A DNA stretch of 64,000 nucleotides from Dudresnaya verticillata (taxonomy: Eukaryota): the NCBI GenBank assembly GCA_977862235.1, contig OZ374564.1, positions 1,674,001-1,738,000 on the forward strand. The letters are read 5' to 3'. Within the stretch, counting starts at the first letter, position 1, and every line of letters starts with the position of its first letter. The notes under the pieces are model-generated. The model had not been told where the DNA came from. It saw only the letters and a list, made by a program, of their open reading frames with translations, and searched no databases. Positions 30,015 through 60,337 of this stretch are shown here, piece by piece. The position numbers and the translations under genes are program-made.

Positions 30015-30053
30015 CAATTTTGAAATGCCAAAAGGCCTACGAGGCTTCGGAGG

Positions 30054-35127: not shown

Positions 35128-35133
35128 TCTTTT

Positions 35134-35151
35134 TGGTCTCCCGACCTAGAA
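35134..35151 (+). promoter_or_regulatory. Primer-binding site of Gypsy element 2 (probably tRNA-Tyr)
   Basis: TGGTCTCCCGACCTAGAA, 6 nt after the LTR. Confidence 0.82.
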
Positions 35152-35291
35152 GGCCGTCAAGGTAGAAGAATCTCCGTTGGACTCCGCTTCGGTAGGAGGT
35201 CAGCTTCGTGACAACTCCGTATTGGTGTAAAGGCAGGACAAGGCAAAAAACTCGTTGACTCCGTTTTGGTAACCTACGAATAGAAGAACAA

Positions 35292-37879
35292 ATGGACCCT
35301 ACCGTATCGGATCAAGGAGAGGTGCCGTCAACCGCGAGAACACGCCGCGGTGACGATAGCACCATCCCGGAGGTGCCCTCTACTGCGAGAGCACGCCGCA
35401 GTGAGCCCACCGAACCGGAGGTAGCCTCAGCCACGAGAACACGCCGTGGCGATGCTGCCGACCTGAACCCCGGTATGGAGAACCCCGAAGAACTCCTTAA
35501 AGGTGTAGCCAGTAAGCTCGTTAGATCCCGACCTGGTTCAGACACTTCCCGCAAGGGTGTATCCAAGCCAGGTGACTCCAATCGTGTCCATGGGATACTT
35601 TCGGAAGTCATCCCACGGGTGTTGGAGCATCTCCGAATAGAGGTGCAGCCCAACATGGTCAAGGAGGTTGAGACCACGCTCGCCGACACCGTTCCGGTCA
35701 TTGTCAGCTCCTACTTGGAGAAACACCTTCCGGAGTTGGTACAGACGCTCATCCGTCAGGAGCGTCAGGCGTCGGAGATCGAGCAGATGCTCATCCCCGG
35801 ACAACCCCTACCGAGACCCAAGGAACAGCCCTTTTCTGGACCTACACCGATACGGAACAACTTCCCGGTCAAGGGAGAAACGACGTATATGCCAGAAATC
35901 CCCACTCAGGTGTTTCCGCCCGATCCGGTAAGGACAGCGGCAGCCCCTGGGTTACCTACCCAAACTCAATACACCGAATTGGATCCAACACACCAACCCC
36001 AACCGAATCGGAGTACGGTCCCTGGACCCGCAGAAATGCCTGCGGGGGAACGTATCACCGTGCCGGTGGCTTCGCGTAGAGGCAGTGAGCACTCCGATGG
36101 TGACTCCAAGAAAAAACAAGACCGGAGTGGTAGAGACAGTGCTGACAGAAAGGCCAAGGACTCCCACTCCGATAAGGAACGTGACCATTCGCAACGGAGC
36201 AAACGCGCTTCGCGACGGGACAAAGAACACTCCGGTACGGAATCTGATGATAGCCAACACCGCAATAGGAAGAAGAATAAGCGCAAGTCGCGCCATAGGC
36301 GACGAAAAGGGCATGACTCCTCCCATTCCTCGGGCTCTGATACGAGCTACTCCGATACGGATAGGGACGAGCGGCGTCGGGCCAGAAAACACGACGCCAA
36401 ACACCGAGAGGTCGACAGGCCACTCCCAAAGGTGATCCGGCCCCTGAACGACAGGTTCGTGAAGGCGCTGGATTTCCGAACATACCGACTGGAGAAAAAG
36501 AGTTCATAAAACAGCTCTAGCTTGTCCCAGAATATGGGACGTATCCGCAAAAAGCTGGAGGTGCAAATGAAGTCCCACTCCTTCAACGGTACAGACCCAT
36601 CACGGTCCTTGGATTTCTCGCGAAGTTCAAGGATGCGTGTAACATCAACTCCATTTCGGAAAGAACCACACTGTGGTGTTTCCAGTTTTTATTAAGTGGA
36701 CAGGCTGAAGCTTTGCTTCAGGCCCGTCTCGCTGGTGGCACCATGGCGGTCGACGAGGAACAAGCAGAGATGCTTCGCACCTATACCGAAGTGGTGAACT
36801 TTTTGCTAAGGACTTATGCTAACGATGAGGTGATTGCCGAAGGGTATTCGGACGTAACGTCGTTTCGACAGACGTCGGCCTTAACGGAAGAGCAATTCTC
36901 CAACCAACTTTGGACTAAGGCACTCCGATACGGTACAGTATTCTCCGACAGGTCCCTCAAGTCGCTGTTTGTGGAAGGACTCCTACCGGGAACGTGTCAG
37001 CAGATGCGCAATTATCTAGCAACACACCCCCACATGGATTACCAAGCCATTACCCGCTACGCTAAAGGGCTTGGAGAATCCCATCGGGCAACCAGGCGCC
37101 AAACGTCAGCGGTGCACGTCTTCGACGGGAAACCTAAGAGTCAGTCACGACGCTCTGGCGTTCTGTCGATTGGTTCCCCATCGGATTATACCTACTCGGA
37201 GTATCCCGCTGAATCGGAGGAGCATGTGCTCGCCCTGGAAGGTGGCGCAGGTCGAAGCGCCGGCACCTCGTCGGGGGTTACGTTTACTACAGCGTACTCG
37301 TCCCCACCGAGTAGTGTCTACCCTACTCCGCCTCGGACTCCCAACCTTCGCCCACCAGCGCCACGGATGCAACCACCCCGGCAACTCCATTACGGACCGG
37401 CTGATAGCCGCTACGGCCCCGCCACACACCGTCAGGGAACCACCGGGCAGCATCCCAGCCATATTGGTCACCCCCACGGCAACACGCCTCCCCGTCAAGG
37501 GCAGGGCGAACACTGTATTGGAAAACAATCACCTGCCGCAGAGCACACGGATCACACCTCACCGGATGTCAGACGCCTCTATGGAAGCGGCTACTGTCGC
37601 TTGTGCCTCTCCCCGGACCATGTAATTTGTCCGTATCTGAGCGACACCGAAACGGGTCCCCTGATGGAAGCGCGCGAGCGCAACTATCAGGCGCTACTCC
37701 TCAAGCGGCAGGCCTTCGCTAACTCCAATACGGGAAATCGTCCGCCGGGCAACTACCAGCAACGCCCCGCACGGGTGCTGACTGTCAATGGTGGTGCGGT
37801 TGGCGAGCCCCCAGCTGATATGGTGGAGGAGGTACTTATGGCGCACCCCGACTCGGAAAACGTCGCAGGAGACGTGTAA
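35292..37879 (+). pseudogene. gag: Gypsy 2 gag (stop at 36507-36509, frameshift at ~36600)
   Basis: LDFRTYRL, FNGTDP, YTEVVNFLLRTYA, FVEGLLP, and Cys/His knuckle CRLCLSPDHVIC. Confidence 0.88.
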
Positions 37880-37907
37880 GGGCGTCCCCGTCTCCTCAAT
37901 GCGACGT
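37855..37907 (+). promoter_or_regulatory. Putative -1 programmed ribosomal frameshift signal
   Basis: G_GAA_AAC (37855-37861) followed by stem AGGAGACG/CGTCTCCT (37867-37874 / 37889-37896). The -1 frame is open into pol. Confidence 0.7.
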
Positions 37908-40900
37908 GGTACGCCCACCAATACGGGCTTTGCCGGACTGTCAGTCCGCCACCATTACGGAGTACCCCCTTGATTTTGTTCCAGAAATCCCCCTTGAATT
38001 TCCACCACCCGGTGATTCTGTCTGTGTCCTACAACGGCAGAATTATAAAATCCAGATTACCGTGGGAAGGAGTAATGACCTCATGTTACCTCTCATCACC
38101 GTATTGGATTCTGGTGCTGGGCCAAATCTCATTAACGCCAGACGGCTTCCACGCCACTGGTTGTCATTGATTCGCCCCGCTGCCAGTCCACCTTTACGGG
38201 ATGCGTCCAATAGGTCAATACGCCCTCTTGGTGTCATTCAACTTTTTGTCCGTATCGGAGAATTGCGTACTCGAGTCCACTTCCTGGTGGTCGCGAACCT
38301 CGCTGCTCCGTGTATTCTGGGAACCAGTTTCATTGATCGTCATGTCAAGGCGATCCTCCCACCGGTACGGAAAGTTGTTTTTCATCACCACTCTCCGGTT
38401 TCGCTAATGGGACAAACCAGAAATTCCAAAACGGTGGCTGCTTCTACCCTTCAGGGCCCCCCTGTGTCATCCGCTTCGGTATCGCAAAAGCTCCGACTAG
38501 CAAAATCCCTTATTATCCCCCCTATGACCCAATCCCTTGCATTGGTCACCACTCCTACCGGTGGTTTGTGTTTTCTTCAAAACCATCCCAAACCCATCCA
38601 TAAGCACCTCACCCTTATGGCTAATGGCGTTATGGATGTCATCCCTAACAAACCCTTTAAGGTGTGGCTGACTAATTTTCCCCCCAAACCGGTGCGGTTA
38701 CCAAAGTCTACCGTCCTGGGCCTCGCTACTGCTGCTCCCTCTGCCATACTCACCGTTAACGGTGTACCTCAATTTAAGGAGGGGGGAGGACATATTAATT
38801 CCTTTCCTACTCCTCCTAATGAAAGCAGCAAGGCTACACCCCAAGATGGATTCAAAGGAAACACCGCATCGGAATCAACTACAACCACTGACACCGATTG
38901 GAAAGATAACGTCCATATTGGTGCCAAGGATAAAAAACTCCGCGCTAAGGTGGTTACACTCCTCGAGGAGTTCAGTACTATGTGGAACGGCGAGTTAGGA
39001 AATATAACTGCCGCGAAACACCTTATTGAATTAATGCCTGGTGCCAAACCGGTGTATCAAGCACCATATCGGGCAGGACATAAACAGCGTGAGCTGGAGA
39101 AGGCAGAAGTGGATCGTATGTTGTCCGCTAAGGTGATCGAGCCATCCGCTTCGGAGTGGGCCAGCCCTGTGGTCTTTGTTCCTAAAAAGGACGGCTCCAT
39201 GCGGTTTTGTTTCGATTACAGGCGTCTTAACGCTGTCACCGTTCGGGATTCATATCCGTTACCCCGGATGGATGAATGTATCGACTCCCTTGGAGAAGCT
39301 ACAGTATTCACCACTCTGGATTGTAATAGTGGCTACTGGCAAGTAGAGATCCCCGAGGAGGAGCGTGACAAAACTACCTTCACCAGTCATTATGGATTAT
39401 ACCGCTTCCGGAGAATGCCTTTTGGGCTCAAAAACGCACCGGCTACCTTCCAACGGGCGGTTGACATCATCCTATCTACGGTGAAATGGCAATTTGCCTT
39501 AGTCTACCTGGATGATGTGATTGTATATTCTAACACCGTCACGGAGCATTTCGAACACCTTAAGGAGGTACTCACACTCCGTTCCGCAGGTATAACACTG
39601 AAATTATCAAAGTGTGCCTTCTTCGACACTTCCGTACAGTATCTGGGCCACATAGTGCGCCCGGGCCAACTGGAAGTGGAACGGAAGAATATTCTCGCCG
39701 TTAAGGAGGCTAAGCCACCTACAAACCAAACGGAGTTGCGCTCTTTTCTAGGGTTATGTAACGTCTATCGACGCTTCGTTCCCAATTTCGCACGTATTGC
39801 TTCGCCACTCAATAAGAAAACCGGCAAGGGTCTCGTATTCGAGTTTGGAACTCTCACCGAAACGGAGTTTAACGCCTTTGAGGAGCTAAAGAGACACTTA
39901 ATCTCCCCTCCAATATTGGCTTTACCCCGTCACGGTTTCAATTATACTTTGGATACCGACGCTTGTGACTACCAAGTTGGGTGTGTCCTTCTCCAGGAGC
40001 AACCTAGTGGAGATAATCTACCAGTGGGTTACTGGAGCCGAAGTCTAACCGATGCGGAAAAGAACTATACAACCACGGAAAAGGAGTGCCTTGCTGTCGT
40101 TTGGAGTATGCTAACGCTACGCCCCTACCTTTACGGTGAACAGTTTATACTCCGTACGGATCACGACGCATTACGCTGGATATTGAGTTTAGCAGATGCG
40201 TCTGGACGCTTAGCAAGATGGCGCTTACGCCTATCGGAATTTGAGTTCGAAGTACAATACCGCCCTGGTATCAAGCACCAACTCGCAGACGGTATGTCAA
40301 GACTCCGAACAGGTGGTGCTGACAAAGCTGAACTGGATGAAGAAGTGCCTTGCTTCGTTATGGAATCGACTCCTAATGGTGTAGTGCAACATGGTGTGCG
40401 ACTAACCAATTGGAAACAGACTCGGCAGCCTGATGCCGCAAGCAGCCTTGTCCTAGGCGTTGAAAGTGGAGACACCGAAACGGATACTACGCCTGAAAAG
40501 GATACAATGCCACCCACTCCACTCCGGCAAACGGTCATCCAACAAGATGATATGCGCAATAAGACCCTTACCCGTGAGGAGTTCATAGCCGCCCAAGCAT
40601 CAGATACATTCTGCAAGCTTAAAGCCGAATCGGTGGGATCCCCTGGATCGCAATTTGACTACGACCGACATGGGTTTCTAGTGCGCAAGTCTGCGCTCGA
40701 CGGCGCACTCCAAAAGGTGGTGCCGCAACATATGCGCGGCAGGGTCCTATATCTCGCCCACTGCACCTTAATGTCGGGACACCCTGGCGGAATTAAGATG
40801 TACTACACCTTACGGAGAGACTACTACTGGCCACATATGGCTAACGATGTATTCGAGACCGTTCGGAGTTGCCGCTCATGTGTCAAAACCAAGGGCACGC

Positions 40901-42252
40901 GGTTTAAGCATCAGAAGTTCATGAAGCTATTTCCCGCGAGTGGACCACTGGAGTTTGTTGCGACGGACATATTGGGCCCGCTGCCGAAAACCAAACGGGG
41001 ATATGTCTTCGTATTGGTTATCACCGATCGCTTTTCTAAGCTAACACGGTGCATTCCGTTACGGACGATTACAGCCGTCGTGGTGGCGAACGCATTTTTA
41101 GACCATTGGGTGTATGCGTATGGCGCACCTAAATTTGTACTCACCGACAATGGAAGACAGTTCACGGCGAAGTTCTTCGACGCTGTCTGTGCCCTACTCG
41201 GAGTACGACATTTGCTGACCGCCGCCTATCACCCGCAAACCAACGGGCAAGCCGAGCGGTTTAACAGAACCATCGCACAACGCCTCCGGCACTACGTCGA
41301 GGATCACCACACCGATTGGGATTTATATCTACAGCCGTTAACCTATTCCTAAAATATGCAGGTACACCGGATCACGGATACTACCCCTTTCGACTTAGTG
41401 TTAACTCGACACCCATCGGATATTATTGTGCGTGGCACCCCTGTGAAGTTGGAAGAAACCGTTACGGAGGGGCGTATGACGCCCGTACTCCAGAAGCGGG
41501 GAACCATGCGGCGTTTGCGTTATGCCCTACAGAAGGCGCAGACCAAACAGACTACAGCCCAGTTGAAGTCCAAGGCCCTATTTGACCGAAAGGTGCGTTT
41601 CCGACCGGTGGTTCGCGGTGGCGACCAAGTCTACGTAGATCGCCCGCCGCGCAATTTACGGCCCACCGAACGGAAGGAACGTGACCGATTAGGCCAAGGC
41701 CCTGACCACGTCGGTGAGTTTGCGGAGCAAATGAAGAAGCTCCTCCCAAGATCGACTGGCCCCTACGAGGTGCACACCGCAACGGATACTGTAGTCACTA
41801 TCAAGAAGGATGGCGTCCTGATTCCCATCAGCATCGATCGCATCACTAAGGTACCAATTGGAGTTCCCGTGCAACCGGCGCCGCTATTGGCTCCGCCGGT
41901 TACGCCACACACCGACATGGACGGTACAGTGCCCCAGCAGGCGGGAGGCACCACAGTAGTACCCCAAACACCAGGTGGTATTACTGTAACGCCCCAAACT
42001 CCAGGCGGTATTTCTGCCCCCGTGCCGGATACAATTGATGCCGACACGGAGTATGTCATCGAGCAGATCGTGGGACACCGCGAAGAACCCACGGGCATGA
42101 CCTACAAGGTGCGTTGGTACGGCTACCCACCAGACCAGGATACGTATGAACTCGCTGAGGAGTTGCCGCAAAACTTCATACACCGCTATTGGAATAGAAA
42201 GCGCACGGCAGCCGCTGCAGCTCGACGTCGCAGAACTCCCGCACGTCGATAG
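37906..42252 (+). pseudogene. pol: Gypsy 2 pol: PR-RT-RH-IN-chromodomain, one in-frame stop at 41350-41352
   Basis: LDSGA, YLDD, TDACD, integrase H..H..C..C, TDILGP/TDNG/AERFNR, GPY motif, and chromodomain EYVIEQIVGH...YKVRWYGYPPDQDTYE. Confidence 0.96.
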
Positions 42253-42551
42253 CCAGTCGCTACTCACCCGCGCGGTAGGAGATTTGGAAAAATCGGGCAT
42301 GACCCGTGGACTCCGTGTTGCGAAAACCCTTGCCCAAGGGGCTCTACTCCATATTGGTGAATCGACGGCAAGCAAACAACCACTTCTGGTATGAGGTGGT
42401 CGCCCACTTGACGCAAAGCCTTGTAGGGTGTACGGTACCCCCGCCACTTCGGAGCTCACTCCACAGTGGTGTTATTCCACTTCCCCTCCGCCATTGGAAG
42501 GGGGGGCTCACAAAAGTCACACGATTTTATTGACAAGTGGCATTTCTACGC

Positions 42552-45149
42552 TTACACCGCATTTCGGGGACGCTTCGCTGATGGCGCCAGGTCAGCCTCC
42601 GTATCTTCCTCTTTTGCCGCACTCTCCTCCAAGTCGGGAATATCTTCACCATATACCCTCGCGGTAATCATGGTGAGTCTCCTGCCGGTGTCTGCCATGC
42701 GTTGACGCAAAGCGCGAATGGTACGCCGTAGGCGCCCCAGACGCCCTACCCACAGCACGGCGGTGTTAATGGCCTCATTCGCCGACGCCGGAAGGGGCAT
42801 ACCCGCATCTCTACACCCTTCGCGGAGTCGCTGCAGGGCCGCCCCATCTACGCGCAACTCCGCTTCGGTCCAATTCGTCGTCTCCTTAGGGGCACCCTCT
42901 TCTTGCTTCACCGTCACGGGGTCAACATGACGGGGTGGCCCTCCACCTGGACCCGCCGCGGCCACAAACGTCACGGAGTCACTCGACGCGGGTGACACCG
43001 GTTTGGCAACCTCACCCCGCTTCGGTGTGGGGGTCTTCCCTGCCATTCCAAGCCGTGTTGTCGCGAGTGCCTCCACTTGTTCGGTTCCCACTGGTGTCGC
43101 GTCCTCTTCCATCTCGGAGTCGTCGTGCTCCCCGAAGGGACCCAACTTAGCCGCGGCCGCAGCTACCGCCATGGGCTCCTGACGAACTACCGCTACGGTA
43201 TTCGCCGCCTTGTCCAACTTGGTATTCTTGTCGACCGCCGGCGAGATAGCCGGTTTCGAAGTCCCGATTGGTGTGGATGCTGCAGCCACCCCCGACAAGC
43301 CCCCCTGCGCCTCGATCTCCGCTCCTACAGGAGGAGACTCCGTCACGGTCTTCTTGGGCGATGAAGTCGTGCGGTCGCCCCACACCTTTATGGCTTCTCC
43401 ACCAGGGGATTCTCTGGGCACGAGGACCCTTGGGTCCCCGCGCCCCTTCTCAATCTCGTCAACCCCCACCGGTGTAATCTCGTCTGCAGGCGGACTGTCG
43501 AGGCGTCCCTGTTGATATGGCACACCGGATGGAGTACCCCACTCACGTGATGGCGGAGCCCTTGATGGCCCCTCCATCATGGGGTAGAACCTCGAGCGGG
43601 AGCGCATCGCGTGCCGGCTTGACATCTTCTCGTCGTTTAACCACGCTGCCTCGGGGTCTTCTTCCGATAGGAAATAGGCCATGCCACACCCGGGGTTGAG
43701 CGGCGGCACCGACAACACGCGGTCGTCATTCCAATGATAACCGACGAACCCCGGCGTCCGCTCCCAATTGGTGTCTGCGTGAACCGCGAAGAGACGTTCC
43801 ACGCGCGCCAAGGGGTATTCGGTCCCCTCAACTAACCGGTCTACTCCAACTTGGTGTATAAGGGTGACCACCGGCCCGGGTAGCTTGAATATGCGTCCGC
43901 ACTCGCCCCCTTCCGGATCCGTTCTGCTCCGCGGGTACGCCCTCCAGTCGGTCATCTTGGTATTAGCTCTTACACCCCGGTAGGTGACCTGTAACCAGGA
44001 AAAGAGGACTAACATGGCCCATTCCGATCGGAGTATGCGACCCAACACCGTCATCAGCGGATGGTCGACAGACTTCTCTCCGCCTGGGTGTGCAGCTTGC
44101 CAGTCTCGATGCTGAATGAACCGGTTGGAGAAGTACGCCACTACCATCGGCGTTGGCACTGACAACCAACGGGTGACTTCATACTCAGTCCACCAATCCG
44201 GAGCGGTGCAATACAAGCGACGGTGTGCCCCCGGGGGCACCTGGAAGAATTCGTTGGTGTTCCAAGTGTGGAGTATCGCCCTTCCGAGTCGGCGTCCATC
44301 TCTACTCCGCAACCGGAGTCGATGCTCTTTCGCTGCGTCGTCGGACCACCGTCGCGGATTCGCAAACCAGTGAACCCCTTGGTCATACGGCTTCTCGTAG
44401 CACAGGAACTCGACACCAACAGGATGCTCTCGCAGTCGATGGGCCATAGCCAACAATTGGCACACCTTATCGGGATAGCCTTCTTCTTCCTGACACCTCA
44501 GCCACACGATGTCACACCCGGTTGGAGTTCGCGCTCTGCAGTTTGAGTGAATCCACCTGGCTCTCCACATCTCCTCACGCCGATTCGGAAATGGCTTGTT
44601 GTTGATTAACCCACCGGCGTCAGTAACAGCACTGTATCGACGCCCCTCGAGGGTGCCACCATAGTGGGAAATGAACACCGATACGGGCATGGGGAGACGC
44701 ACCATATCGCGCTCCTCCTCGGTCCGCTGACGCCGCCCGGTGCGGTGATCATACTGCCGGCCTGGCCAAGTCCCCTCATCGGTGTACCCCGTCGAGTCCA
44801 CACGCCCGTGGTAACTCCCCGGTGTCCCCGGCGTGTATGGCAGTGAACCCGACGGCCCGCCGCCGACACCAGAGTGGAGTGGGGGTGAGGTTACTCCACC
44901 TCCGATCTGACCAACCTGGAGACCCTGCGCGTACGCCTCATACCGCCCGTGCGGAGTTGCGCGACGATATCCCCCAAGCTCCATCTCGGTGTTACCCTTT
45001 GAAGGACCGGGTCGTTGTGCTCCCGGCCCCACTTGTCGATCCGGAAGCGGAGTGGGCGCCTGTCGAGCTACTCCGTCATCGCGCCGTCGCGGCACCCTCG
45101 GGCTACCCGCGCGGGCTGGCAGCATTGGCGTTGTGCTCGCCGCCGCCAC
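42552..45149 (-). CDS. Intact 865-aa antisense ORF of unknown function between pol and the 3' LTR
   Basis: 2.6-kb uninterrupted frame; low-complexity ends around a Trp/Tyr-rich ~360-aa core; C-terminal helix and basic tail SAKRPR. Listed start is GTG; first ATG is 8 codons later. Confidence 0.8.
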   Translation of the reverse strand: MAAASTTPMLPARAGSPRVPRRRDDGVARQAPTPLPDRQVGPGAQRPGPSKGNTEMELGGYRRATPHGRYEAYAQGLQVGQIGGGVTSPPLHSGVGGGPSGSLPYTPGTPGSYHGRVDSTGYTDEGTWPGRQYDHRTGRRQRTEEERDMVRLPMPVSVFISHYGGTLEGRRYSAVTDAGGLINNKPFPNRREEMWRARWIHSNCRARTPTGCDIVWLRCQEEEGYPDKVCQLLAMAHRLREHPVGVEFLCYEKPYDQGVHWFANPRRWSDDAAKEHRLRLRSRDGRRLGRAILHTWNTNEFFQVPPGAHRRLYCTAPDWWTEYEVTRWLSVPTPMVVAYFSNRFIQHRDWQAAHPGGEKSVDHPLMTVLGRILRSEWAMLVLFSWLQVTYRGVRANTKMTDWRAYPRSRTDPEGGECGRIFKLPGPVVTLIHQVGVDRLVEGTEYPLARVERLFAVHADTNWERTPGFVGYHWNDDRVLSVPPLNPGCGMAYFLSEEDPEAAWLNDEKMSSRHAMRSRSRFYPMMEGPSRAPPSREWGTPSGVPYQQGRLDSPPADEITPVGVDEIEKGRGDPRVLVPRESPGGEAIKVWGDRTTSSPKKTVTESPPVGAEIEAQGGLSGVAAASTPIGTSKPAISPAVDKNTKLDKAANTVAVVRQEPMAVAAAAAKLGPFGEHDDSEMEEDATPVGTEQVEALATTRLGMAGKTPTPKRGEVAKPVSPASSDSVTFVAAAGPGGGPPRHVDPVTVKQEEGAPKETTNWTEAELRVDGAALQRLREGCRDAGMPLPASANEAINTAVLWVGRLGRLRRTIRALRQRMADTGRRLTMITARVYGEDIPDLEESAAKEEDTEADLAPSAKRPRNAV

Positions 45150-45443
45150 AACTCCTGATATGGTGTCCGCAGGTCCGCCGCCTTCTCCCTATTCTGCCTC
45201 CGGCGCAGGAGCCGCCCCCACCAATGGTGTACGCCGTGTCGGTTGAAAGGGGCTCCGTGCGCGGTCAGTGTTGCCGCCCGCCATCGCTAGCGGCACACCG
45301 GGTTGGACTTGCACGTTGGTCGACTTGCTCGAAGTGGAGTGCACCGATGAGGTTTGCTCGGTTGTTGGATACACCTGAGTGGATTTGTTGTAGAAGACGT
45401 GCCGAGGCGCACGAGGACGTGGCGCCATTTAAGGAGCGGGGTC

Positions 45444-46118
45444 TGTGGTGAAGCGGCCGTTTCGGAGTGCGGACGACGGTTGAGCCGACCCGCGCCCGGC
45501 GCAGTGGTGAGCTGGCGCCAAAAGCCGAAACGGAGTGCAGCGACACAGTAGGACTGTACGCCTTGCTGGAGTCTGCGCGCACCACCAATAGGAGTCAAGT
45601 AGTTGATTTATTTGTAATTAGGTAATTATAATCATGCTGTACAGTACGTAGTGTCAGCCGGCCAATAAGAATGCCGAGCATGTCCGAAACGGTGACCGGG
45701 ACCAGTAGGGCCGGACCCACCTGGTGGACCAGACCCATTGGGGTCTGGCCCACACGGACCGGACCGCGGGGCGTATCTCCCAGTATATTAATGGGTGGCC
45801 ACCGCGAGGTCTACAGTAAGCGGGTACGCAACCCTGGGCAAAGTGACTTACCCTAAGCCTTACCCTCATACTCCTTTACGGTTTCCACTCGCCATCACCG
45901 TGCACTGATTCCTCCTACCTCCGTCCCGGTGTAGCTGCCCTGGCACTGTACCGTCCCCCTTGTCTGTTGCGTCCCTTTACTCCTTACAGGTGTTGCCGCT
46001 CGAGGTACTCCCTTCGGTCTACGAACTAAGCTCTACCACCCCGGTGCCGTGTGAGATCACTACTTATTGGGATTGCCTGATCAGCTCTCCTTACAGGTGT
46101 GCCTTTCACTGCACCACA
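45444..46118 (+). repeat. 3' LTR of Gypsy element 2
   Basis: Direct repeat of 34453-35127, same length. Confidence 0.97.
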
Positions 46119-49384: not shown

Positions 49385-50194
49385 TCAACGGCCTGTTGGG
49401 AAACACACTACGTATCTAGAACTGGACCTATCGATTTGTGGTGGGGTCGTCGGAGGTGATGTAGTATGTTGGAGGCCAATGCGACGGATTTGTTCAATTG
49501 TTTTGCTTACGCGTGCGAGCGAGATGGGAGTTGGGCTTGGGTGAGCCAGCAGGTTCAAGATGAGTCGGTGGGCAGCTGCGAGGTTGGGAGGAGGGATAGG
49601 GAACGTCCCTAAGTGCCATCGTATGGTGAGAATTCGATGTGCGGCGTATTGCGATTGCATGGCCGGTGCAAAGCGCGTTGAGGTGTAGACAGGGGCAGGC
49701 TGTCCCCCAGCAAGAATGCGGGTCTAGGTTGCAGTTTGAGCGCGGTGAAGTTGGGGTGGTGTTTTTGGGGAGCGGATCGTACTCCGCAGGCCGGCAATTC
49801 CCGAGATCTTGGCGGCGTGGGGCACTGATGACGCAGCCCAGGAAACGGTCGTAGTGGTGGAATTGGAGAGTTGTCGGAGCCGGCGTACTAGGGAATGTTG
49901 GAGCTGCGACGAAGATAGGGGGGCATCTGGAATTCTAAAGAGTGCTCGCAGCTTTCCGAGCTGTTCGGGGGGGATGCGGTGCGTCCGCCGCCCGATTGAG
50001 ATCCGGAGGAAGAGAGCCTGGGCGCTGTCCATGTTTGACTCGAGTTCGGGGGTGAGTGAGGTCAAAACCAGTGCGTACTCGAAATGAAGCGAGCGGCACT
50101 GGCATGCATTCGGGAGTGATGTGTCCTGCGCTGGCCAGCATACCAACAGTTCCTTTTGCGGTCTGAATCCGGTTGAGCATGGACTGAAGTCCAA
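49385..50194 (-). mobile_element. 5'-truncated decayed LINE fragment, same family as 60338-62818
   Basis: FEYALVL...MDSAQALFLR...KLRALFRI and RILTIRWHLGTFPIPP align with the C-terminus of the 826-aa LINE ORF. Confidence 0.85.
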
Positions 50195-50896
50195 TTCTAT
50201 CGCGGGTTAACTCGGTACCGAGATAGTGTGCACTTGGGACAGCCTCAATGTACAGTTAAAGGAAATACGGCTGCATGCCCTGCGCAGCGTAGCAGAAGAA
50301 GAAGCATCGCGCTGCCTTGTGGGTAGAAAGAGGATTGATTGGCTGCCAGAAGATTTCAGAGGAAAGGCCACCTTATACTGTACAACATCTGAACCGTCAC
50401 ACGCGCAATAACCATTTTCCTCTTTATATGCCGCCCGGTCCAACCCGTCATTATAGCGCAAGCAAAGAACCTCCCGACTTCATTCCCTTCCTCAAGAACT
50501 GAGATAGCGCTTACATATAGGAAATGCCTCCTCGGCGACTACAATGGAAAACTGTACTATCATAGCCATGGTGGCGGATTACCCCCACTTGATGAGAATC
50601 GATAAGGTAAGCTGCGAGCAACCTTCATACAGTGCATTTATCAATATTGCGTAACCCCTTGCAACAGCTCCACCTCCTTTGCATACCCGGTTATACCAAT
50701 TTGTGTGCGTTGAACCCCCCATCGTTCTCTCTGCTTACCTACACCAGCTCCGAAGAGTTCCTGCTCGACTGCGCCCTTATTAGCAACACACACATCCAGC
50801 CCAGTCCGATCAACCCAAACAACACACAAGCACAAGCTTTTGAGCCCCATACTCTCCGTCGCCTGTCCTCATTTCCGCAACTATCGAAAAACAACT

Positions 50897-51796
50897 ATGA
50901 ACAAAGGAGTTCAATTAGAAGCATACCCGTCCTTCGCGTACAACTTCCGTGATGAATACCTCGCTGAGACCGGTGTCTTCGCTGGAATTAGCATAATTTC
51001 CCATTCTCCCCTGCTCGTGCCTGGAGGTGCCCCCCAGCTCATCAAGTTTCTCTCCACATTACCTCACAATTCTATCATTTTGGTAGTAGACGCCCTGAAC
51101 AAGCATAACATAATGGCAATGGGTCGAGGGGGGAGCCGTAACGGATGCAAAGAAGGCCGCGCCTTGGAAATCAGTATGCATTGTGGCGACCTGTATGTGG
51201 AGACCCTACAGAACGCTATCGATGAAAACCGGGACATCGCCGGAACAGGAAAGATTACTGTCGTTCGTTGGCAGGAAGTCATTGATGGGAACAAGATAAA
51301 GCAAGAGGCCATTGCTCACAAACACTATGATACTAATGAAGTCTTTCGGGAGAGAGTCGATGAGATTGCTACGGGTTTTCTCTATCATCGTCGCCCTAAG
51401 TGCAAGCATATTTCCCGCAGGCTGCCACATCTGGTCAACTACCTATTGGGGGAAATGGCATCCCTTGTTACCGGTGTGAAGTACAACGGACAGCATTTCC
51501 GTGCCCTCGTTTATCCGACCACTGCAGAAGCATTGGAGGAAGTGAAGTCATGTCCGCGAGCACACACTATGTGGAAACTCGTGGACGACATTCAGAATGA
51601 CCCCGCCTTTAATGATCTTAAACAGGAGTTAATAGAGGCAGATGACGGAATCGAGGCAAGGAACGGGGTGGCTATCCTACCAATTCTTCGTCATGTCGAG
51701 GAAAAAGAGGCTTCCGAGAGCGAAGGTTGTCCTGTGAGAAACCAGATTCGAAGAACGTCTCGTGGGTTGGCGGCCCACGAAGCGGCCGGTGTTTAG
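50897..51796 (+). CDS. tRNA-dependent cyclodipeptide synthase (CDPS)-like protein, XYP type, 299 aa
   Basis: VFAGIS (S32), ILVVDALNKHNIMA, VVRW, HYDTNEVFRERV, NYLLGE (Y182, E186), LVYP (Y206, P207). Y-E-Y spacing (+4, +24) equals AlbC Y178/E182/Y202. Intact and intronless. Confidence 0.85.
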   Translation: MNKGVQLEAYPSFAYNFRDEYLAETGVFAGISIISHSPLLVPGGAPQLIKFLSTLPHNSIILVVDALNKHNIMAMGRGGSRNGCKEGRALEISMHCGDLYVETLQNAIDENRDIAGTGKITVVRWQEVIDGNKIKQEAIAHKHYDTNEVFRERVDEIATGFLYHRRPKCKHISRRLPHLVNYLLGEMASLVTGVKYNGQHFRALVYPTTAEALEEVKSCPRAHTMWKLVDDIQNDPAFNDLKQELIEADDGIEARNGVAILPILRHVEEKEASESEGCPVRNQIRRTSRGLAAHEAAGV

Positions 51797-53883
51797 TTTC
51801 GTCGTTGCCTGGCAGAAACAACAGTCCAACATGAGTACACTCTCAGCGAAAACCGCAAGCTAGAAGGCTAAGGCTTCAGGCTATGTAAAAACGGCATTGC
51901 TTCAGGTTGGGACTGATGGCTTCTCCCCGAATGCAGTGGAGAATGTCCGAGTCCAAAAGGCTGAGTGGTTCGACTGAAAACTCTTAATTACGCTTGGATG
52001 CCAAAAAAGCTTTGTTGATCTGCGGAGATACCTGCAGGTATGTTATATAGCGACAGTGAACAATGTTTGTCAGCCGCGGGTTCGCTTCGATAATGTATGT
52101 GAGCGAGCCCTTTCGCTCAGTATCTCTTTCAGAATCGTTCCTACCGCCACCTTTCTTATCCGATTTCAGTAAGGCGATAGTAAAATTGATGGAGATGAGA
52201 CGGTTGTCGTACGTGCGATTGCATAGGCAACAAAGGACAATGAGTGAATACATGCGATCGGATTGCGAGCTGGCGGTGGGCTGGTGACAGGAGTCACAGG
52301 GCCGGGGCAAAACGCAAATTGTAATAGACAAATAGAAGAGAGCACAACACCAAACCATGCTGCAAGGTCAAACGCCGAGTTGTGATTTCGGGGACGCGGA
52401 AGAGGGCGTGTAGCCTAGACATACGGGGCGCAGGCATCGTGAGTGTCTTTTCGACAATGACGGAACGGAAGAAGAAGAATTCAGAGTACCAGCTAACGGG
52501 GAAAACGTATCGAGAGATTGCTACGATCTGCAGTAGGAAGAAGTGAATCATGTGCCAGAAACTGGTATTCCAAGAAAGGTAGGCGAGTAGTCCAACTCCT
52601 AAAGCCGGGCGGTTGGAATGAGATGTAGATTGAAAGAGGTCCTGTGAACAGGTCCCAATATATTCCTTGGGCGTACAGTACGGGGAACATATTTGCATTA
52701 TACGTCCCGCAGTTATTCAGTCGGGTTGCAACACAAGTGCGAAGTCAGCGAACGGAGTCCAACGCATAACAAAGAGGCGAAAGTATCGTTCTGTAACCCT
52801 TTTATTGTTATTGTAAGCATTGGCAGGAGACTTATTTTGCTCTAACACATGCGCTTCCGTATCGATAGTAATGTCAATGCGAGCCCTATGGTACAGGAAA
52901 GTTGTGGCATAGAAAGACTGACCACGCTGCCAATGGGCGATAATTGTGATGTTTGATTTGTTGGCGTTCTGTTTAGAGTAGACCAGCACAGGCGGCAAAG
53001 GACCATTTGCAAATGGGCCTTACCCGCCCCAATTGGATTTGAAGGCTCACATGTGCAAGCAACAACAACGTATTCAAACGGGAGGCGCAAGCGAGTAGGA
53101 TTGTCAGAAGCCCCAACTCTTTCGCCTCACTCATTTCCTTAGCCTCATAACATACTATTGAAGCTGACCAGTTGAAGTGGGGCCTCGTACTGAAGAGTAG
53201 AAGTAGAGGAAGGCATGTAGCATCTCAATGAGTAGACTAGCACTTGGATAGGAACGAGGTGAGGGAGAGGTGAGGCGATGGTAGATGGCAATATCAGCTG
53301 AGCTCGCTGCTCCTCTTTTCATTTGTCTCTGCCCTAATGCCTTTACCCACCGATGCCTCGGCGGTTAAGTACTGCCCGCGGAGCTTGTTCACTCCACCAG
53401 GTCCACCGTCCGACGACGGCTTAGTGCAGGAGGGCACTCGGATTCAAAACCGCATCACCCTGAAACGTCTTACTGTCTTGCCAGGAATTTCTTGGCCCAA
53501 TAGCGATAAAGCGATGTCCTCAAAAAGACGTCCGGTGTCCGTCGCCCATTTTAAATACTCCTAAACATAAAGGAATGGCCGAGATTAATTGTTACATTGC
53601 TGTAGTACGAAAAACTACACTTAGCTTATATCTACGTTGCGCGTTCCGTAGACACACACTAAGAAACATTTACCCACGAAACGCATCTTGCATCCAGAAC
53701 TGAGGTATGAGTTTTGCATTGCATCGAGCGATCGTGCGGGAGTATAGTAGGGCGTAACAGGCATTTTGTACAGGTATGTGTATTACTTCCATTTTTTATT
53801 GCAGAGCTCTTCACGATGAAAGTGATGCTTTACTGTTACTGTTGTGCAGGGTGGTCCTGCAGGGACGAAAAAAGGCTCATTAC

Positions 53884-54194
53884 TGTTAGTACCGGTTTCT
53901 TTCGTGTGTGTTCTTACCTTTACTCAACTCGGTTTCCTGTGGTATTTATGCTACTGTATCTCTACAATCTTTAAGGGTTTGCTTTTCTCTCGTGCACGGA
54001 GAGTATCCGAGATATTCTTGACTCCGGGAGTATTTCCGGGAGCAGCCATAGCATTGCTTGTCATCGGCTGACAACGACAGCGTACCACTTGTTGTTCTTC
54101 ATGGTCACTAGTCCATCTCCAATAAACAGTATCCATATAACAAATATGTCTGCACTACTGCATTTGCTCTGCTCTCTGAACCCGCTGTCTAACA
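53884..54194 (-). repeat. 3' LTR of Gypsy element 3
   Basis: Direct repeat of 59112-59422. Confidence 0.96.
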
Positions 54195-54218
54195 TTCGGC
54201 CTTACTTACAGAATCCCT

Positions 54219-57200
54219 CTATCTCGACGCCCTTATTGCATCCCACTCGGCAACCACCAGTTCTGGTAGCTCTGTTTCAGGAACCCACTCTTGTTTTGAG
54301 TCCAGACTATTCTTAACTTTTAGGTGGCGAACACCGCGGACGATCTTTTCTGCTCGAATGTTCCGAATTAGTCGACGCGTATCCGGAAAGATTCCATCCT
54401 GCGGGTCCCCGGTCTCTTGTACGTCCTCCGCGATTCTCCGCAATCGGTTGACGTGTACCCTTGCCACTTCACGACCAACCTCCGACCTTATTATATACGA
54501 GATTTTTGAGAGGGGTTCTTCAACTTGATATGGTCCCAGCCAAGGTGAATTGAGTTTCCGGCCCTTCTTCATAGAATGAAGCGGATTATAAACCATAACT
54601 CGATCTCCCTTCTCAAACTTAACATCTTCAACTAGTTTGTTATACTGTTTCGCTGCCTTCATTCTAGAATCGACACCTTTTCGTACTAATTCTTGATGCA
54701 GCACTTTTAAACGAGCAGCCAATTCTTCGGGTGACCGAGGCGCCTCATCTAACGCCATTCTTTTTCCTGCCTCTGCATCGAAATCGAAAGCATCGACGCC
54801 AAACACCGCCTTGTAAGGGGTTATGCCAGTTGCTGAATTAACTGTACAATTATACCTGAAGCATGCCATTGCCACGTGTTTGTTACAGTCGTGCGCATCT
54901 GGGGCTACGAATTCCCTTATATCCTTCATGAGTGTTCTATTAAATCTCTCTATAAACCCATTCGTTTGGGGATGGTAACGGCTTGTAAATATTTTCTTAG
55001 TACCCACGCGGCTGCACAATTTTCTTACCAAATCGCTCATAAATGCTTTGCCTCTATCGCTTAGAAGCTTTTCAGGCGGTCCGAAACGCAGTATCCACTC
55101 GTCCATTATTACTCCCGCCAATGTCTCTGCTGTTTCGTCGATAATTGGGCAGGCCCAAACAAACCTTGTAAAAAGATCTCCCATGACTGCTACCTTTCCA
55201 CAGTATCTGCCCAGCGTAGATGATACTTCCAATACATCAATCGCTACTACTTGAAACCTCCGCAGCGGATGCCACGTTAGCATGTGCCCCTGTCTACCAG
55301 GCCGTCCAAGTCTATGAAGGGTACAGTGTACACATTTTCGGACGCGATGTGACACATCTCTTCGAAGACCCTTCCACCAAAACCTCTTCTGGACCCAGCA
55401 TAGAGTCTTAAAAACGCCGCGATGCCCAATATGTCTTGAGCCATGCGCGTGTTGCAGCACACGGTCCACTAATAGACGTGGTACAACTATTCTCATGCTA
55501 TCTTTGAGCATTAAACACATCAGCGAATCTTCATCCAGAACGAACTCCTTGTCTCCGTGCTTATATTCTTCAAGATTTCCGAATTCCTGTTCCTGTGCTG
55601 ATCGGATCTCGGCAACAGATGGAAGGCACCTGTCTTTTTCTCTTGTGAACCTTATGCGTTCCTGGCATTTGGTGCATTTCATCGTGCCCACAGCGTCTCT
55701 GCTAAGTGTGTCTGCTACTGTCAGCAACTCTCCTGGGGCGTACTCTACGATAAAGTCAAAATCTTGCACCTCCACCATCCATCGCGCCAACCTTCCCCGC
55801 GGCTCTGTGAGTGAGAGAAGCCATTTTAGCGCCTCGTGATCCGTAATGACATTGAAGGTGGGTCCACCATGCAAGTAGTGCCGCCACGAAGTGCGTGGAT
55901 AACTGCCAGGCATTCCTTCTCGGTTACAGTATAGCGCACCTCGGCTCCTTTGAGTTTCCGTGACGTAAAGGACACTGGACGACAAAGCCCAGCTTCATTC
56001 ACCTGAATTAAAACTCCACCGATGCCATAATCGCTTGCATCTGTCATTACAATTTTCTTCTTCTTAATATCGGGTGCCGCTAATAGTTCCGGGCTAGAAA
56101 GCTCTTTCTTGAGACTCTGCCACGCCAACGTCTGACTTTCTCCCCAACGCTGATCCCAGTCTCTGACCGAACACGTCGCCGCACGGTGCCTTTTCTTTTT
56201 ATTAAAGTCCGTGCCCTGTAGCACTTCATATAAAGGTTTTGCGCGGTTTGTAAAGTTCGGTATAAAGACAGAGAAGTAATTAATTAGCCCAAGAAAACGC
56301 ATTAGCTCGGTTATGTTCCGTGGTTCCTGGAGGTCCTTAATGGCAGAAACATGTCCTTCGGACGGCTGCAAGCCATCTGGCTGTACTCTATGACCCAAGA
56401 CCTCAACCTCTCGGACTCCAAAACAGCACTTACTCAGCTTTAGGCGCATGCCTGCTTTCAACATGCACGACAAAATTTTCTCCAATTCCACAATATGAGA
56501 TTCCTCATCCTCAGTACCTACACTTCCGTCATCCATAAAAGCCCACAGGCTCCTCCCCTTGAACTGTCCCAATACCAAATTAATGATGCGCTGGAATGCC
56601 GCTGGGCTGTTCTTCAGACCCTGTGCTAGCCTTGTATATTTTAGTAGACCTATAACAGTCCTAGCAGCAGTGTACTCTCGTGACTCAGCATCAAGCTGCA
56701 CTTGAAAATAACCATCCTTTAAGTCGAATGTTGAGAAGACCTTTTTGCTAGCCAGCCAGTCCAATGTTTCTCTAACGCCTTCCATAGGGTACTGATCGGA
56801 CACCGTACGTGCATTTAGTGCACGAAAATCAGTTGTGCACCTCAGTGACCCGTCTTTCTTAGGAACAAAAACATTGTTTGAAGCCCACGGAGACTCCGAG
56901 TGCTCCACAATGCCCTGGGACAAAAGTCGTTCCATGGTCTCCTTCTCGGTGCGCTGCTCTGCAGGCGACCGTCTTCGAATGGGGGATGCCACTGGCTCAG
57001 CATCCCTATTCACCCTAATCTTGTGCTTGTAGCCTGAAATGCAGCCCACGCCCTTGAAAATCTCCCTGTACTTCCAGAGTACATTTCGTAATCTCTGTCG
57101 CATTTGTTTTGCAGGATGAAAAGAACTTAGATCCATGTTCAAGATTGCCGCATCAATATCTGCATCCTCAATGATTGCCCGTACCTCTTCATCATGAATA

Positions 57201-57667
57201 TCCTTGAGCCGAAGATTTCCTTCAAATTGTTCACCCTGTACAGTTACGGTCCCCTGCAGTGTATCCAGATCCATCTTCATTTTATACTTCAACCAGAATC
57301 GCCTCCCAATAAGGATTCCACTTGGTAAACTCTCCATGACCCGAACCGGTTGTTGATGGAATTGTTTCCCCAACATGCTAAATGTTAAATATCCTCTGCC
57401 CACAACATTTAGTTTCCGTCCGCCTGCATCTAATGCATCCTCTTCATCAACCATAAGCTTCCCCCCAAGCCTTCTGAAAAGGGTCGCGTTGATCCACAAC
57501 GGAAACGCCCCAATGTCTACAACAGCAGGGACAAATTCTTTTCTTCCACTTGGATTCTTAAACGCCAAGTCTACCACGACATCTAGGCTGGCATTCCCCT
57601 CCTCTTCGTGAGAAAGACAATTTTCTTCTGCGCATTCACAGACTGTCTCCCACGATTTCTTTTCCAT
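54219..57667 (-). pseudogene. pol: Gypsy 3 pol: PR-RT-RH-IN with degenerate chromodomain-like tail; frameshift at ~55890
   Basis: VVDIGA, FDLKDGYFQ, AQGLKNSP, FMDD, TDASDYG, TDHEAL, H..H..C..C, IDVL/SDRG/IERFNR, WLGPY, EWVPETEL. Confidence 0.95.
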
Positions 57668-57687
57668 ATTGCCACACGTTTCGGGAG

Positions 57688-58587
57688 TTAAGCCCTGTTC
57701 TGCAACGGAGGGCTGCTCCCTTTCTCTTTCCCCAGTTCTTTCTTTTCCTTGTTGTCACCTTCATTTGTCTTAGGTCCTTCACACTTCTCTTTTTGCCAAG
57801 ACATATGGCCCAGCTTCCCACACGTGTAACATTTCAACTTAGCAAAGCGATCCTCCCTACCCGATGGGGGGAATGCACGACCTTCTGTGCTTTGATTTTC
57901 CCTTACCTCTTTAATCCCTTCAGAGCGGTTTTGGGAGTCAGCAATTTGTGCCATAGCAGATATAAGCTCATCATATCCACCCTGGCTTGTGTATGCGAAC
58001 GCTTGCAGACGCACAGGCAGCCCTTTGATAAATTGTGCCTGTATAAGCGCCTTGTCGTATCCGAGAGAAGAACCTAGAACAGTAACACGTTCCCCGTATT
58101 TTCGAATCGATTCGTGACGTTCATCCCATTTAAGTCCAAGAAAGGAAGTGTTCTGTGACTTTTTCTGTGTTTCATTAAACAGACTCTGCTCCAATAGAGA
58201 CCATAGAGCCCTTGCGTCAACATCCTGGTCTTCACGACACACTGCATTAGCGAGCTTCAAAGCTGATTTTTCAAATGCCAACATTGAAAGCTCCTTCTCA
58301 ATGTCATCTTCTAACGGGAACTTCTTATGTAGCCTCTCGAAGTCCTCTTTGGCGGCCGGGAAGTTGTAGTCTCCCACCAATGAAACCTTGTTCAGTGTCA
58401 TCTTCCGTTGCCAGATCTTGAGCCTGTCCGAAGTAGACAATCCCGAAGCAGCACGAATAGTTTCTTTTTCGTTGCGTTTTGTTTCCGCTCCATCAACAGA
58501 TATAACGTAACCGTCTTGTCTACGCACGACCTTCTCAACGTTTGTTCGTGATGCCACTGGTTCTTCGTTACTACTATGACCCTGCAA
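57688..58587 (-). CDS. gag: Gypsy 3 gag
   Basis: ESIRKYGERV, FIKGLP and knuckle CYTCGKLGHMSWQKEKC. Confidence 0.85.
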   Translation of the reverse strand: MQGHSSNEEPVASRTNVEKVVRRQDGYVISVDGAETKRNEKETIRAASGLSTSDRLKIWQRKMTLNKVSLVGDYNFPAAKEDFERLHKKFPLEDDIEKELSMLAFEKSALKLANAVCREDQDVDARALWSLLEQSLFNETQKKSQNTSFLGLKWDERHESIRKYGERVTVLGSSLGYDKALIQAQFIKGLPVRLQAFAYTSQGGYDELISAMAQIADSQNRSEGIKEVRENQSTEGRAFPPSGREDRFAKLKCYTCGKLGHMSWQKEKCEGPKTNEGDNKEKKELGKEKGSSPPLQNRA

Positions 58588-58641
58588 AACTTGCAGCTTG
58601 CAGTTTGCTTAAAAAAGCTTCTACTTGACCTTGCACTTCGT

Positions 58642-58905
58642 TTATCTCAGCAATCCGCGTTGCTCCGCCTGTTCGTTGCCTTTGGATACTTCTTGGGGTC
58701 CATCCTGACTATTTATTATGGCCTTCATAACAGCGTTATGGTTTTCCGCCATACTGCTTTGGACTTGATCCACGGAGCCTCTCAGAGTCTCCACTGTAGC
58801 CTGAAGTTCGATTACGGTCTCGGCCGTCTTTTCTAACTCGGCAGTCAGCTCCTTTACACTTCCTTCTAAAGCAGAAACCCTCTCGGTATTGGTGCGTCCT
58901 GACAT
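58642..58905 (-). CDS. Small coiled-coil ORF upstream of Gypsy 3 gag (separate ORF or detached gag N-terminus)
   Basis: 87 aa, ATG start, heptad pattern ERVSALEGSVKELTAELEKTAETVIELQATVETL. Confidence 0.6.
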   Translation of the reverse strand: MSGRTNTERVSALEGSVKELTAELEKTAETVIELQATVETLRGSVDQVQSSMAENHNAVMKAIINSQDGPQEVSKGNEQAEQRGLLR

Positions 58906-59111
58906 CTTTAGACTTGAAAATATTCTCGCCCTTACTTTAACAGCCCCTCTCTCTGCTCCACTGCGACGAACCTCCTGTTCTGCCCAGTGCTTGACTCAGT
59001 CCCTCTCTTGGACCAAGGTTTCAAACGCGAACCGCAGCTCACGTATCCTTCACCTGCCGTTCGTACAGCAGATGCTTGAAAAACTCACAAACACAGTAAG
59101 TTTAAACTTAT

Positions 59112-59422
59112 TGTTAGTACCGGTTTCTTTCGTGTGTGTTCTTACCTTTACTCAACTCGGTTTCCTGTGGTATTTATGCTACTGTATCTCTACAATCTTT
59201 AAGGGTTTGCTTTTCTCTCGTGCACGGAGAGTATCCGAGATATTCTTGACTCCGGGAGTATTTCCGGGAGCAGCCATAGCATTGCTTGTCATCGGCTGAC
59301 AACGACAGCGTACCACTTGTCGTTCTTCATGGTCACTAGTCCATCTCCAATAAACAGTATCCATATAACAAATATGTCTGCACTACTGCATTTGCTCTGC
59401 TCTCTGAACCCGCTGTCTAATA
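59112..59422 (-). repeat. 5' LTR of Gypsy element 3
   Basis: Direct repeat of 53884-54194; outer terminal CA mutated to TA on the plus strand. Confidence 0.96.
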
Positions 59423-60337
59423 TTACCAAGCGCACCCGCCCGAAAGCCCAGATAACGGCTTAGGGAGAGGAAGCAGCTTGAGCACAGGTTAAAAGCTAGT
59501 GGGAACCGGTGAAATGAGGGGGGTGGATTCTCCCGGGATGGTCAGTGCAACATCAGATAGTCGTCGAAGCTATCCTTGCATATGCGGCGGCTAGGTCGCT
59601 CGGGGTATGACTCTCCGTCCTGCTACGTTTGCTGAGATTCTGGATGCAAGCTCGAAATAGGGCTCAATTTTTCGAGCACTACTGCGGGATTGAGAAGGTC
59701 TAAAGATGCCAGTGACTTATTGTTTAACAATGGCGAGGGGCGGTCTTGGTTTTGGGGAGGCCGAGGGCTGGGGAAAAGCGAGGGGATAGAAAATCAGGGA
59801 CACGGCGATGCCCTTTCAAAAGGGTGCGCCCTTCAGCATTGCGCATGACATGGAGGGGGTGTCGGGGGTGGGTGTTGAACTAAGGCTCTAGGAAGGAAAA
59901 GAGCCCAGTCAGGAGGACCAAAAGAGTTCCATGTCTGTAAGACATGGTATTCCCCATAGTCACACCAATCATATAGTTGAAGTTCCCCTATATGATTGGT
60001 GTGACTATGTAGCTACAGGCTGTATGAGAGTGGAATGCTCAGTGGTGACAAGCAAATGCTTTACCTTGATGAACAGATGTTGCCCGGGTACTGTGAAATG
60101 TATCCATAGGATCGACCAGGTATCAACGTCTATATCGATGAAGTGTTCATATTCTGCTTCTGAAAATTCTCCAAACCTTTCTTGTGCTAGCTTTGGACAT
60201 CGAAACCTACTACTGTCCCTTGGCTAGTTAGTTCTAGCACCACTATATATATATACGTATAGAAGATGATATGGATATAAGAAGTAAGCAGTTGGGCAAT
60301 GTTGGACTGTTCCGTAGGGGGATTGTTCACTTAATAA

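Follow-up and report, generated by a model that had tools for sequence, protein, structure and literature searches.

An intact gene predicted to encode an XYP-like cyclodipeptide synthase in transposon-rich eukaryotic DNA

Results

An intact reading frame among transposable elements

The window, i.e. the whole 64-kb stretch of DNA analysed here, contains one gene of the cyclodipeptide synthase (CDPS) family, P0001, which is flanked by mobile elements (Table 1). As the first-pass annotation had claimed, the ORF is intact: its 299 codons include no internal stop, and in 300 shuffles of the region between the flanking LTRs (46119-53879) no ATG-initiated ORF reached 299 aa, the longest having 240. 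The core domain spans residues ~6-269, and in the AF2 model the tail (277-299) is disordered. GC3 of P0001 is 0.53, compared with 0.48-0.60 in the surrounding elements, its GC content (0.50) is the same as that of its flanks, and no terminal repeats bracketing the gene were found.

Table 1. Features of P0001 and its surroundings (window coordinates).
Feature	Position	Strand	Remarks
CDPS-family gene P0001	50897..51796	+	intact, intronless, 299 aa, ATG to TAG
S32 codon, predicted nucleophile in GxS motif	50990..50992	+	AlbC S37 / ParcuCDPS S26; alignment
D65 codon	51089..51091	+	aligns with ParcuCDPS D58 of Ser-Asp dyad; alignment
Basic stretch R165-R175, candidate tRNA-binding surface	51389..51421	+	conserved in nearest clade
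Y182-x3-E186	51440..51454	+	AlbC Y178/E182; alignment
Y206-P207	51512..51517	+	AlbC Y202 and XYP Pro; alignment
Decayed LINE remnant	49484..50557	-	~340 bp upstream of P0001 start, divergent
Upstream Ty3/gypsy-type LTR element	34453..46118	+	LTRs 34453-35127 / 45444-46118, 97.9% identical
Downstream LTR element	53880..59424	-	LTRs 53880-54196 / 59108-59424, 99.1% identical

None of 33 flanking frames (at least 70 codons, 46100-53900) has a Pfam match, the scan covering 33 of 39 frames, as the other six overlap the P0001 ORF or the LTRs. A tblastn search with all 90 relatives described below, P450 fusions included, matched only the P0001 ORF and its stop-free upstream frame, i.e. it revealed neither a second CDPS copy nor an upstream P450 exon in the window. 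Both results support the proposed stand-alone context without tailoring genes nearby, and no tailoring gene, P450 included, was detected in the 64 kb. In the window there are no tRNA genes and no Rfam matches, and a scan for bacterial promoters stayed at chance level.

The setting is indeed the eukaryotic desert of transposable elements (TEs) that had been described, with LTR, LINE and DIRS-like elements (the latter with a reverse transcriptase, RT), a DDE transposase and a broken cytosolic-type HisRS. The gag proteins and the lack of introns may point to a red-algal host. The LINE remnant upstream of P0001 was picked up by tblastn with the LINE ORF of the window itself (28% over 380 columns, E 1e-16), and the downstream LTR element begins 2.1 kb past the P0001 stop codon. 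P0001 had also been called the only undisrupted non-TE ORF; its intactness stands, but its exclusivity is less certain, as 18114-19526 and 19551-21395 are long open frames, too. The former (+) codes for 470 aa without a Pfam match or assignable family, the latter (+) for a 614-aa DUF7869 protein with 68 homologues that are up to 46% identical over the full length, one of them labelled as a bacterial MAG, and the pair is probably a transposon.

Several other features of the window deserve mention. An 857-aa antisense ORF without Pfam match (42552-45125, - strand) lies inside the upstream LTR element, between a chromodomain-like ORF and the 3' LTR. The DIRS-like retroelement (29700-34231, - strand) comprises an RT ORF, with a direct repeat of 208 bp at either end; an ORF downstream of the RT, which has no Pfam match, presumably corresponds to a tyrosine recombinase. 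The HisRS fragment (14570-15405, +; human HisRS, E 1e-18) is intronless, carries two in-frame stops and adjoins a WD40 fragment (13888-14349). Both look like captured or retrocopied pieces of host genes, making gene capture by mobile DNA plausible in this window. Finally, two similar ORFs (7697-8185 and 9268-9846, +) without Pfam match end in a DG-x-HR motif that we take to be ParB-like, and a split ORF (11352-13107, +) weakly matches N6/N4 DNA methylases (E 0.036 and 0.005); the ORFs of 7697-13107 are possibly a decayed ParB-methylase element.

Family assignment

In Pfam P0001 has no CDPS match at E<=1 (PF16715, cut-off 27 bits), and NCBIfam TIGR04539 scores 20.4 bits (E 3e-4), far short of its cut-off of 45 bits. 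As the 11 other proteins in the P0001 clade all miss the Pfam cut-off, too, the missed cut-offs reflect the coverage of the curated models. Comparison with PDB sequences, in contrast, returned eight matches, all of them CDPSs (best 31ee, FoCDPS, E 2e-5), and with a 12-sequence profile (query and 11 near relatives) all 12 PDB matches were CDPSs, the best having an E value of 2e-19. Thus, the profile search suggested in the first-pass annotation gave the expected family in the PDB, but not at the Pfam and NCBIfam cut-offs. In the Atlas P0001 scores 0.95 to CDPS clusters, its recognition value being low.

The AF2 model of P0001, based on a 78-row alignment, has a pLDDT of 88.8 and a pTM of 0.86. 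Among the Foldseek matches listed, ranks 1-43 are all CDPSs, the first TyrRS appearing at rank 48. VIA-align likewise places CDPSs in the top 26 entries (best 9j61, Z 20.0, rmsd 2.9 Å, 221 residues), and its best TyrRS has a Z score of 13.1; the modelled class-I aaRS-like Rossmannoid fold is therefore nearer to CDPSs than to TyrRS (Z 20.0 vs 13.1). Superposition on CDPSs yields rmsd values of 2.8-2.9 Å across 215-221 residues at an identity to the closest solved CDPSs of only 14-20%. A viral structure library (BFVD) contained two matches at E<=0.001, both CDPSs. The assignment to the CDPS family, for which structure prediction had been proposed as a check, is hence supported by sequence and profile matches in the PDB and by CDPSs ranking first in both structure searches.

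Catalytic residues and putative tRNA-binding surface

Equivalents of AlbC S37, Y178, E182 and Y202, whose roles have been described (PMC3105412), are all aligned in P0001, and G30-I31-S32, Y182, E186 and V205-Y206-P207 are found at the positions given earlier. Conservation was counted in 69 proteins whose domain comprises at least 170 residues; the remaining 22 of the 91 were fragments and were dropped. Position 32 is Ser in 59 of the 69 rows (9 gaps, 1 Ala), position 182 Tyr in 61 and Phe in 6, position 186 Glu in 68, and position 206 Tyr in 55 and His in 12; Pro occupies position 207 in 47 rows, the three nearest relatives of P0001 having Ala. In addition, P0001 has an Asp, D65, aligned with D58 on β3 of ParcuCDPS, and this position is Asp in 60/69 rows (7 gaps). 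In ParcuCDPS, D58 is essential and activates the Ser of a Ser-Asp dyad, its loss removing >90% of the activity (PMC7613923).

The XYP triad X40/Y202/P203 corresponds to S35/Y206/P207 in P0001, which does not match the NYH triad N40/Y202/H203. The 69-row conservation supports the earlier claim of a complete catalytic set with an XYP-type triad. XYP enzymes bind the tRNA's acceptor stem via long basic strands β2 (K-φ-X-F) and β7 (L(R/K)FKK) (PMC7566563). This consensus is absent from the predicted strands 12-14 and 258-263 of P0001, and so is a basic helix α4 as in AlbC (PMC3105412), helix 86-110 containing one basic residue. P0001 instead might bind tRNA by the basic 165-175 stretch, within which R165, P167 and R175 are invariant across the 12 sequences of alignment A3. 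D65, the missing basic strands and the P450 fusions of the wider family had all escaped the first-pass annotation. Judged by sequence and model, P0001 is a real and intact XYP-like CDPS gene that lacks one XYP feature and falls below the curated cut-offs.

Relatives

Scanned in full with HMMER, 1.84 billion representatives yielded 90 relatives at E<=0.001, eight of them at <=1e-30, and the best three are 48%, 44% and 37% identical to P0001. A word-indexed homologue search found nothing for P0001 alone and one match for the alignment, i.e. the clade of P0001 was reached only by the full scan. In a midpoint-rooted tree (61 rows, 8 further partial rows left out, no named references) P0001 is part of a 12-row clade (support 99/89) with members ~31-48% identical. 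The clade includes a 7-row sister branch (95/96), and P0001 groups loosely with P0002-P0004. The named XYP enzymes ParcuCDPS and Fdum-CDPS are among its top structural and profile matches.

Three relatives (P0014, P0017, P0019) have matches that stop at query residue 154, and the matches of three others (P0027, P0028, P0053) start at 155, behind leaders resembling translated polypyrimidine tracts. This breakpoint looks like an intron at that codon, read by a prokaryotic gene caller. As the fragments share the 154/155 break and hit the sister branch, which is the best match for 23 of 24 fragments tested, the nearest kin of P0001 are likely to be spliced eukaryotic genes. The P0001 gene itself is continuous at this position. 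In P0014 the C-terminal half of a CDPS domain precedes the N-terminal half of a second one, which suggests a tandem two-CDPS gene with introns.

Scanning GTDB with subclade patterns, an insensitive approach that may overlook closer bacterial relatives, gave a single locus, from Halomonas, with an N-truncated CDPS of 25% identity. In this locus (L002, 4346-5504) the Halomonas salifodinae CDPS, which is devoid of the region of the N-terminal catalytic Ser, lies directly behind a transposase-like ORF. No locus was obtained for P0001, P0033, P0035, A4, A5 and A6 in IMG/VR viral contigs, for P0006 in metagenomes or for P0032 in GTDB, these being weak blanks from short exact patterns. Plasmid and phage records gave no match.

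P450 fusions in the wider family

An N-terminal Pfam P450 domain is present in 13 of the 14 relatives longer than 600 residues (35 of the 90 relatives were Pfam-scanned). All 13 fusions retain the heme-Cys motif and ExxR, and most have a hydrophobic N-terminus. One of them, P0006, belongs to the clade of P0001 (38% identity); its P450 is closest in the PDB to eukaryotic microsomal P450s, and a second full-length member of its cluster is located on another contig. Ten fusions form a separate, long and AT-rich branch (100/99) that is not the sister of P0001, and the fusion state requires four changes on the tree.

The only locus obtained for the long branch, L001 of P0035, is gene-dense with 30-32% GC. 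At 1-2921 an MFS transporter comes directly after the end of the P450-CDPS fusion, and repeat proteins lie next to it. This DNA looks giant-virus-like, and L001 is possibly a make-modify-export unit in such an element. Pattern scans of IMG/VR gave no member of the long branch. The idea that the C-terminal domain of a mimivirus P450 is a CDPS was dropped, as the BFVD matches included no such fusion and no paper was found in the literature searched. The fusion order in print is CDPS followed by P450, in the NYH enzyme CDPS 71 (PMC5816076), and the term 'fus' is absent from the accessible text of a review of CDPS-associated P450s (PMC7954767).

Substrate pocket

The residues lining the predicted pocket P1 were mapped following Gondry 2018, the mapping being verified on the ParcuCDPS entry of that paper. 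They are F28, G30, L62, V64, W125, S189, L190 and L204, seven of the eight being identical in Methylovulum miyakonense CDPS 91, an XYP enzyme that produces cFF (51%), cFY (36%) and cFL (8%) (PMC5816076, Data Sheet 4). In the parts of Data Sheet 4 examined, CDPS 91 is the only catalogue row that fits the last pocket residues of P0001. Cyclo(His-Phe), however, is the product of a Parabacteroides enzyme whose P1 is related (PMC5816076, Data Sheet 4). In general, products are predicted from P1 signatures less well for XYP than for NYH enzymes, 73% vs 91% being predictable (PMC5816076). The P1 residues differ in the three nearest relatives of P0001. The first residue of the product is likely to be Phe or some other bulky, hydrophobic amino acid, which we regard as a lead only. 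Of the fungal XYP CDPSs, two showed no activity in E. coli (PMC5816076).

Discussion

Taken together, sequence, model and analogy to characterised enzymes make it probable (roughly 0.75) that P0001 encodes a working, stand-alone, XYP-related CDPS with a ping-pong mechanism. The enzyme would take two cytosolic aminoacyl-tRNAs and release a cyclic dipeptide. By analogy to AlbC and ParcuCDPS, S32, polarised by D65, would accept the first aminoacyl group, which Y182 and E186 would anchor, the second aminoacyl-tRNA would give rise to a dipeptidyl-enzyme, and Y206 would assist cyclisation. More speculatively, the tRNA may dock on the basic region 165-175 and not on β2/β7 as in canonical XYP enzymes. 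Where other proteins of the wider family carry an N-terminal P450 fusion, this P450 would oxidise the product.

A CDPS fold may also host a changed chemistry, with S32 being loaded and the aminoacyl group then being passed to another acceptor or released in a linear dipeptide. P0001 lies below the family cut-offs, lacks the basic XYP strands and is only 14-20% identical to the closest solved CDPSs, and the papers found characterise no clade member. Nevertheless, we consider this improbable, since the full tetrad including the cyclisation residue Y206 as well as D65 is kept and the 13 relatives with a fused P450 mirror the frequent CDPS-P450 pairing, which acts on diketopiperazines. Rather unlikely, too, is a copy that is intact yet silent or dispensable, e.g. 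a recent duplicate or a TE-captured gene that has not decayed so far. Its solitary position in 64 kb of transposons, the LINE remnant 340 bp upstream and the broken HisRS and WD40 fragments of the same window would fit such a copy; however, these host-gene fragments are broken and the P0001 ORF has no lesion, all catalytic residues are kept at ~50% divergence from the nearest known relative, and terminal repeats are missing. Contaminating bacterial DNA or a symbiont fragment joined by mis-assembly comes to mind, since most CDPSs are bacterial and symbionts of algae have them, too (PMC10132079). This is highly implausible in view of flanks that contain no bacterial neighbours (no Pfam match in 33 frames), match the GC content of P0001 and include, at 340 bp upstream, a eukaryotic LINE remnant and, at 2.1 kb downstream, an LTR.

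Where a working CDPS of this kind came from is a separate question. A giant-virus or bacterial origin, P0001 being the CDPS half of a P450-CDPS unit, would be compatible with activity; the gene is intronless, a giant-virus CDPS is known (PMC6403294), and P0035 resides in gene-dense DNA with 30-32% GC on a 671-kb contig, followed by the MFS transporter and repeat protein. Yet the AT-rich fusions form their own long branch (100/99) and not the query's sister, no member was found in the pattern scans of IMG/VR or in phage or plasmid records, the composition of P0001 matches the host, the single GTDB locus found is truncated and 25% identical, and the megavirus CDPS is filed under NYH. We regard this origin as doubtful, and entry via a giant virus or bacterium, if it happened at all, as possible but not recent. 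The suggestion that P0001 was horizontally acquired is, when understood as a recent bacterial transfer, not supported in view of its local-like GC3, the spliced appearance of fragments near the sister branch and the low identity (25%) of the sole prokaryotic locus found with the subclade patterns. By its place in the tree P0001 is a member of a supported 12-protein clade and not a lone bacterial import, and it probably is a nuclear gene of the host, its clade being old and likely eukaryotic.

Among eukaryotes, CDPSs are on record for Ascomycota, Annelida, Ciliophora and Cnidaria (PMC11610984; PMC2922099), and reviews list no other group (PMC11610984). In the 2017 catalogue the XYP eukaryotes are fungi, their enzymes being untested or inactive in E. 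coli, and the animal enzymes are NYH (PMC5816076); term searches of parts of its Data Sheet 4 gave no Chondrus, Gracilar- or Rhodoph- entry. Candidate diatom CDPSs have been mentioned without activity (PMC8027222). The accessible text of a 2026 review (PMC12945691) does not contain the terms eukaryot-, fung-, alga or P450, and that of PMC9437257 adds nothing further on eukaryotic CDPSs. Among the matches listed in the literature searched, which included few subscription journals, there was no paper on a red-algal CDPS, the P0001 clade or a P450-first fusion. Unpublished or unseen work on eukaryotic CDPSs does exist, as evidenced by the FoCDPS structure.

Eukaryotic CDPSs are already known, and most interest lies in the hidden clade and in the P450 fusions. 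Since neither P0001 nor the rest of its clade reaches the cut-offs of Pfam and NCBIfam, annotation with these models misses them. We tentatively propose, at somewhat less than even odds, that P0001 represents a widespread, unannotated XYP-related branch in seaweed-like and animal-like eukaryotes and in giant-virus-like elements, with a tRNA surface of its own and with membrane-anchored P450-CDPS fusions that recur and may be ancestral. If so, marine eukaryotes would make and oxidise diketopiperazines themselves instead of obtaining them from associated bacteria or fungi, and the fusions in reverse order would be one-gene routes to oxidised diketopiperazines. A profile of the clade provides a means to seek such synthases in algal and animal genomes, e.g. 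with regard to the open question of the diatom diproline pheromone enzyme (PMC8027222). P0001 itself is cheap to test, being short and intronless and having a concrete product prediction.

Comparison with known systems

FoCDPS (31EE/31EG) is the best PDB sequence match of P0001 and, like P0001, eukaryotic, stand-alone and XYP-type. In the alignment it differs from P0001 by a Cys in place of the nucleophilic Ser and a His where AlbC has Y202 and P0001 Tyr; P1 is also different, and identity is low. In sequence it fits the Fusarium group of XYP CDPSs (Gondry 2018), Fusarium being its presumable source; no paper on it was found in the literature searched. The CDPSs from Streptomyces sapporonensis (9J61) and Fdum-CDPS (5OCD) are the top structural matches (Foldseek E 2e-7, Z 20.0 and 18.1), but are bacterial and 17-20% identical. 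Canonical XYP enzymes, unlike P0001, have the basic β2/β7 consensus (PMC7566563). Methylovulum CDPS 91, compared by pocket residues, is identical to P0001 in 7/8 P1 positions and differs in P2.

Nematostella Nvec-CDPS2, other cnidarian and annelid CDPSs and the Powai lake megavirus CDPS belong to the same family and have non-bacterial hosts, but all are filed under NYH, whereas P0001 has Ser35/Tyr206/Pro207. The bacterial NYH enzyme CDPS 71 (cWY) combines CDPS and P450 in one chain, as do 13 relatives of P0001; its order is CDPS-P450 (PMC5816076), which is reversed in the relatives, and P0001 itself is unfused.

ParcuCDPS from Parcubacteria RAAC4_OD1_1 (PDB 7QB8 and mutants), an XYP enzyme producing cHP/cHE, resembles P0001 in fold (Z 19.2, rmsd 2.8 Å over 215 residues), although it is bacterial and only 15% identical to P0001. 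Both share the Ser/Tyr/Glu/Tyr tetrad and the Ser-Asp dyad (D58 = D65), but the polar, His-selecting P1 residues Y55, E174 and Y189 of ParcuCDPS are replaced by L62, S189 and L204 in P0001.
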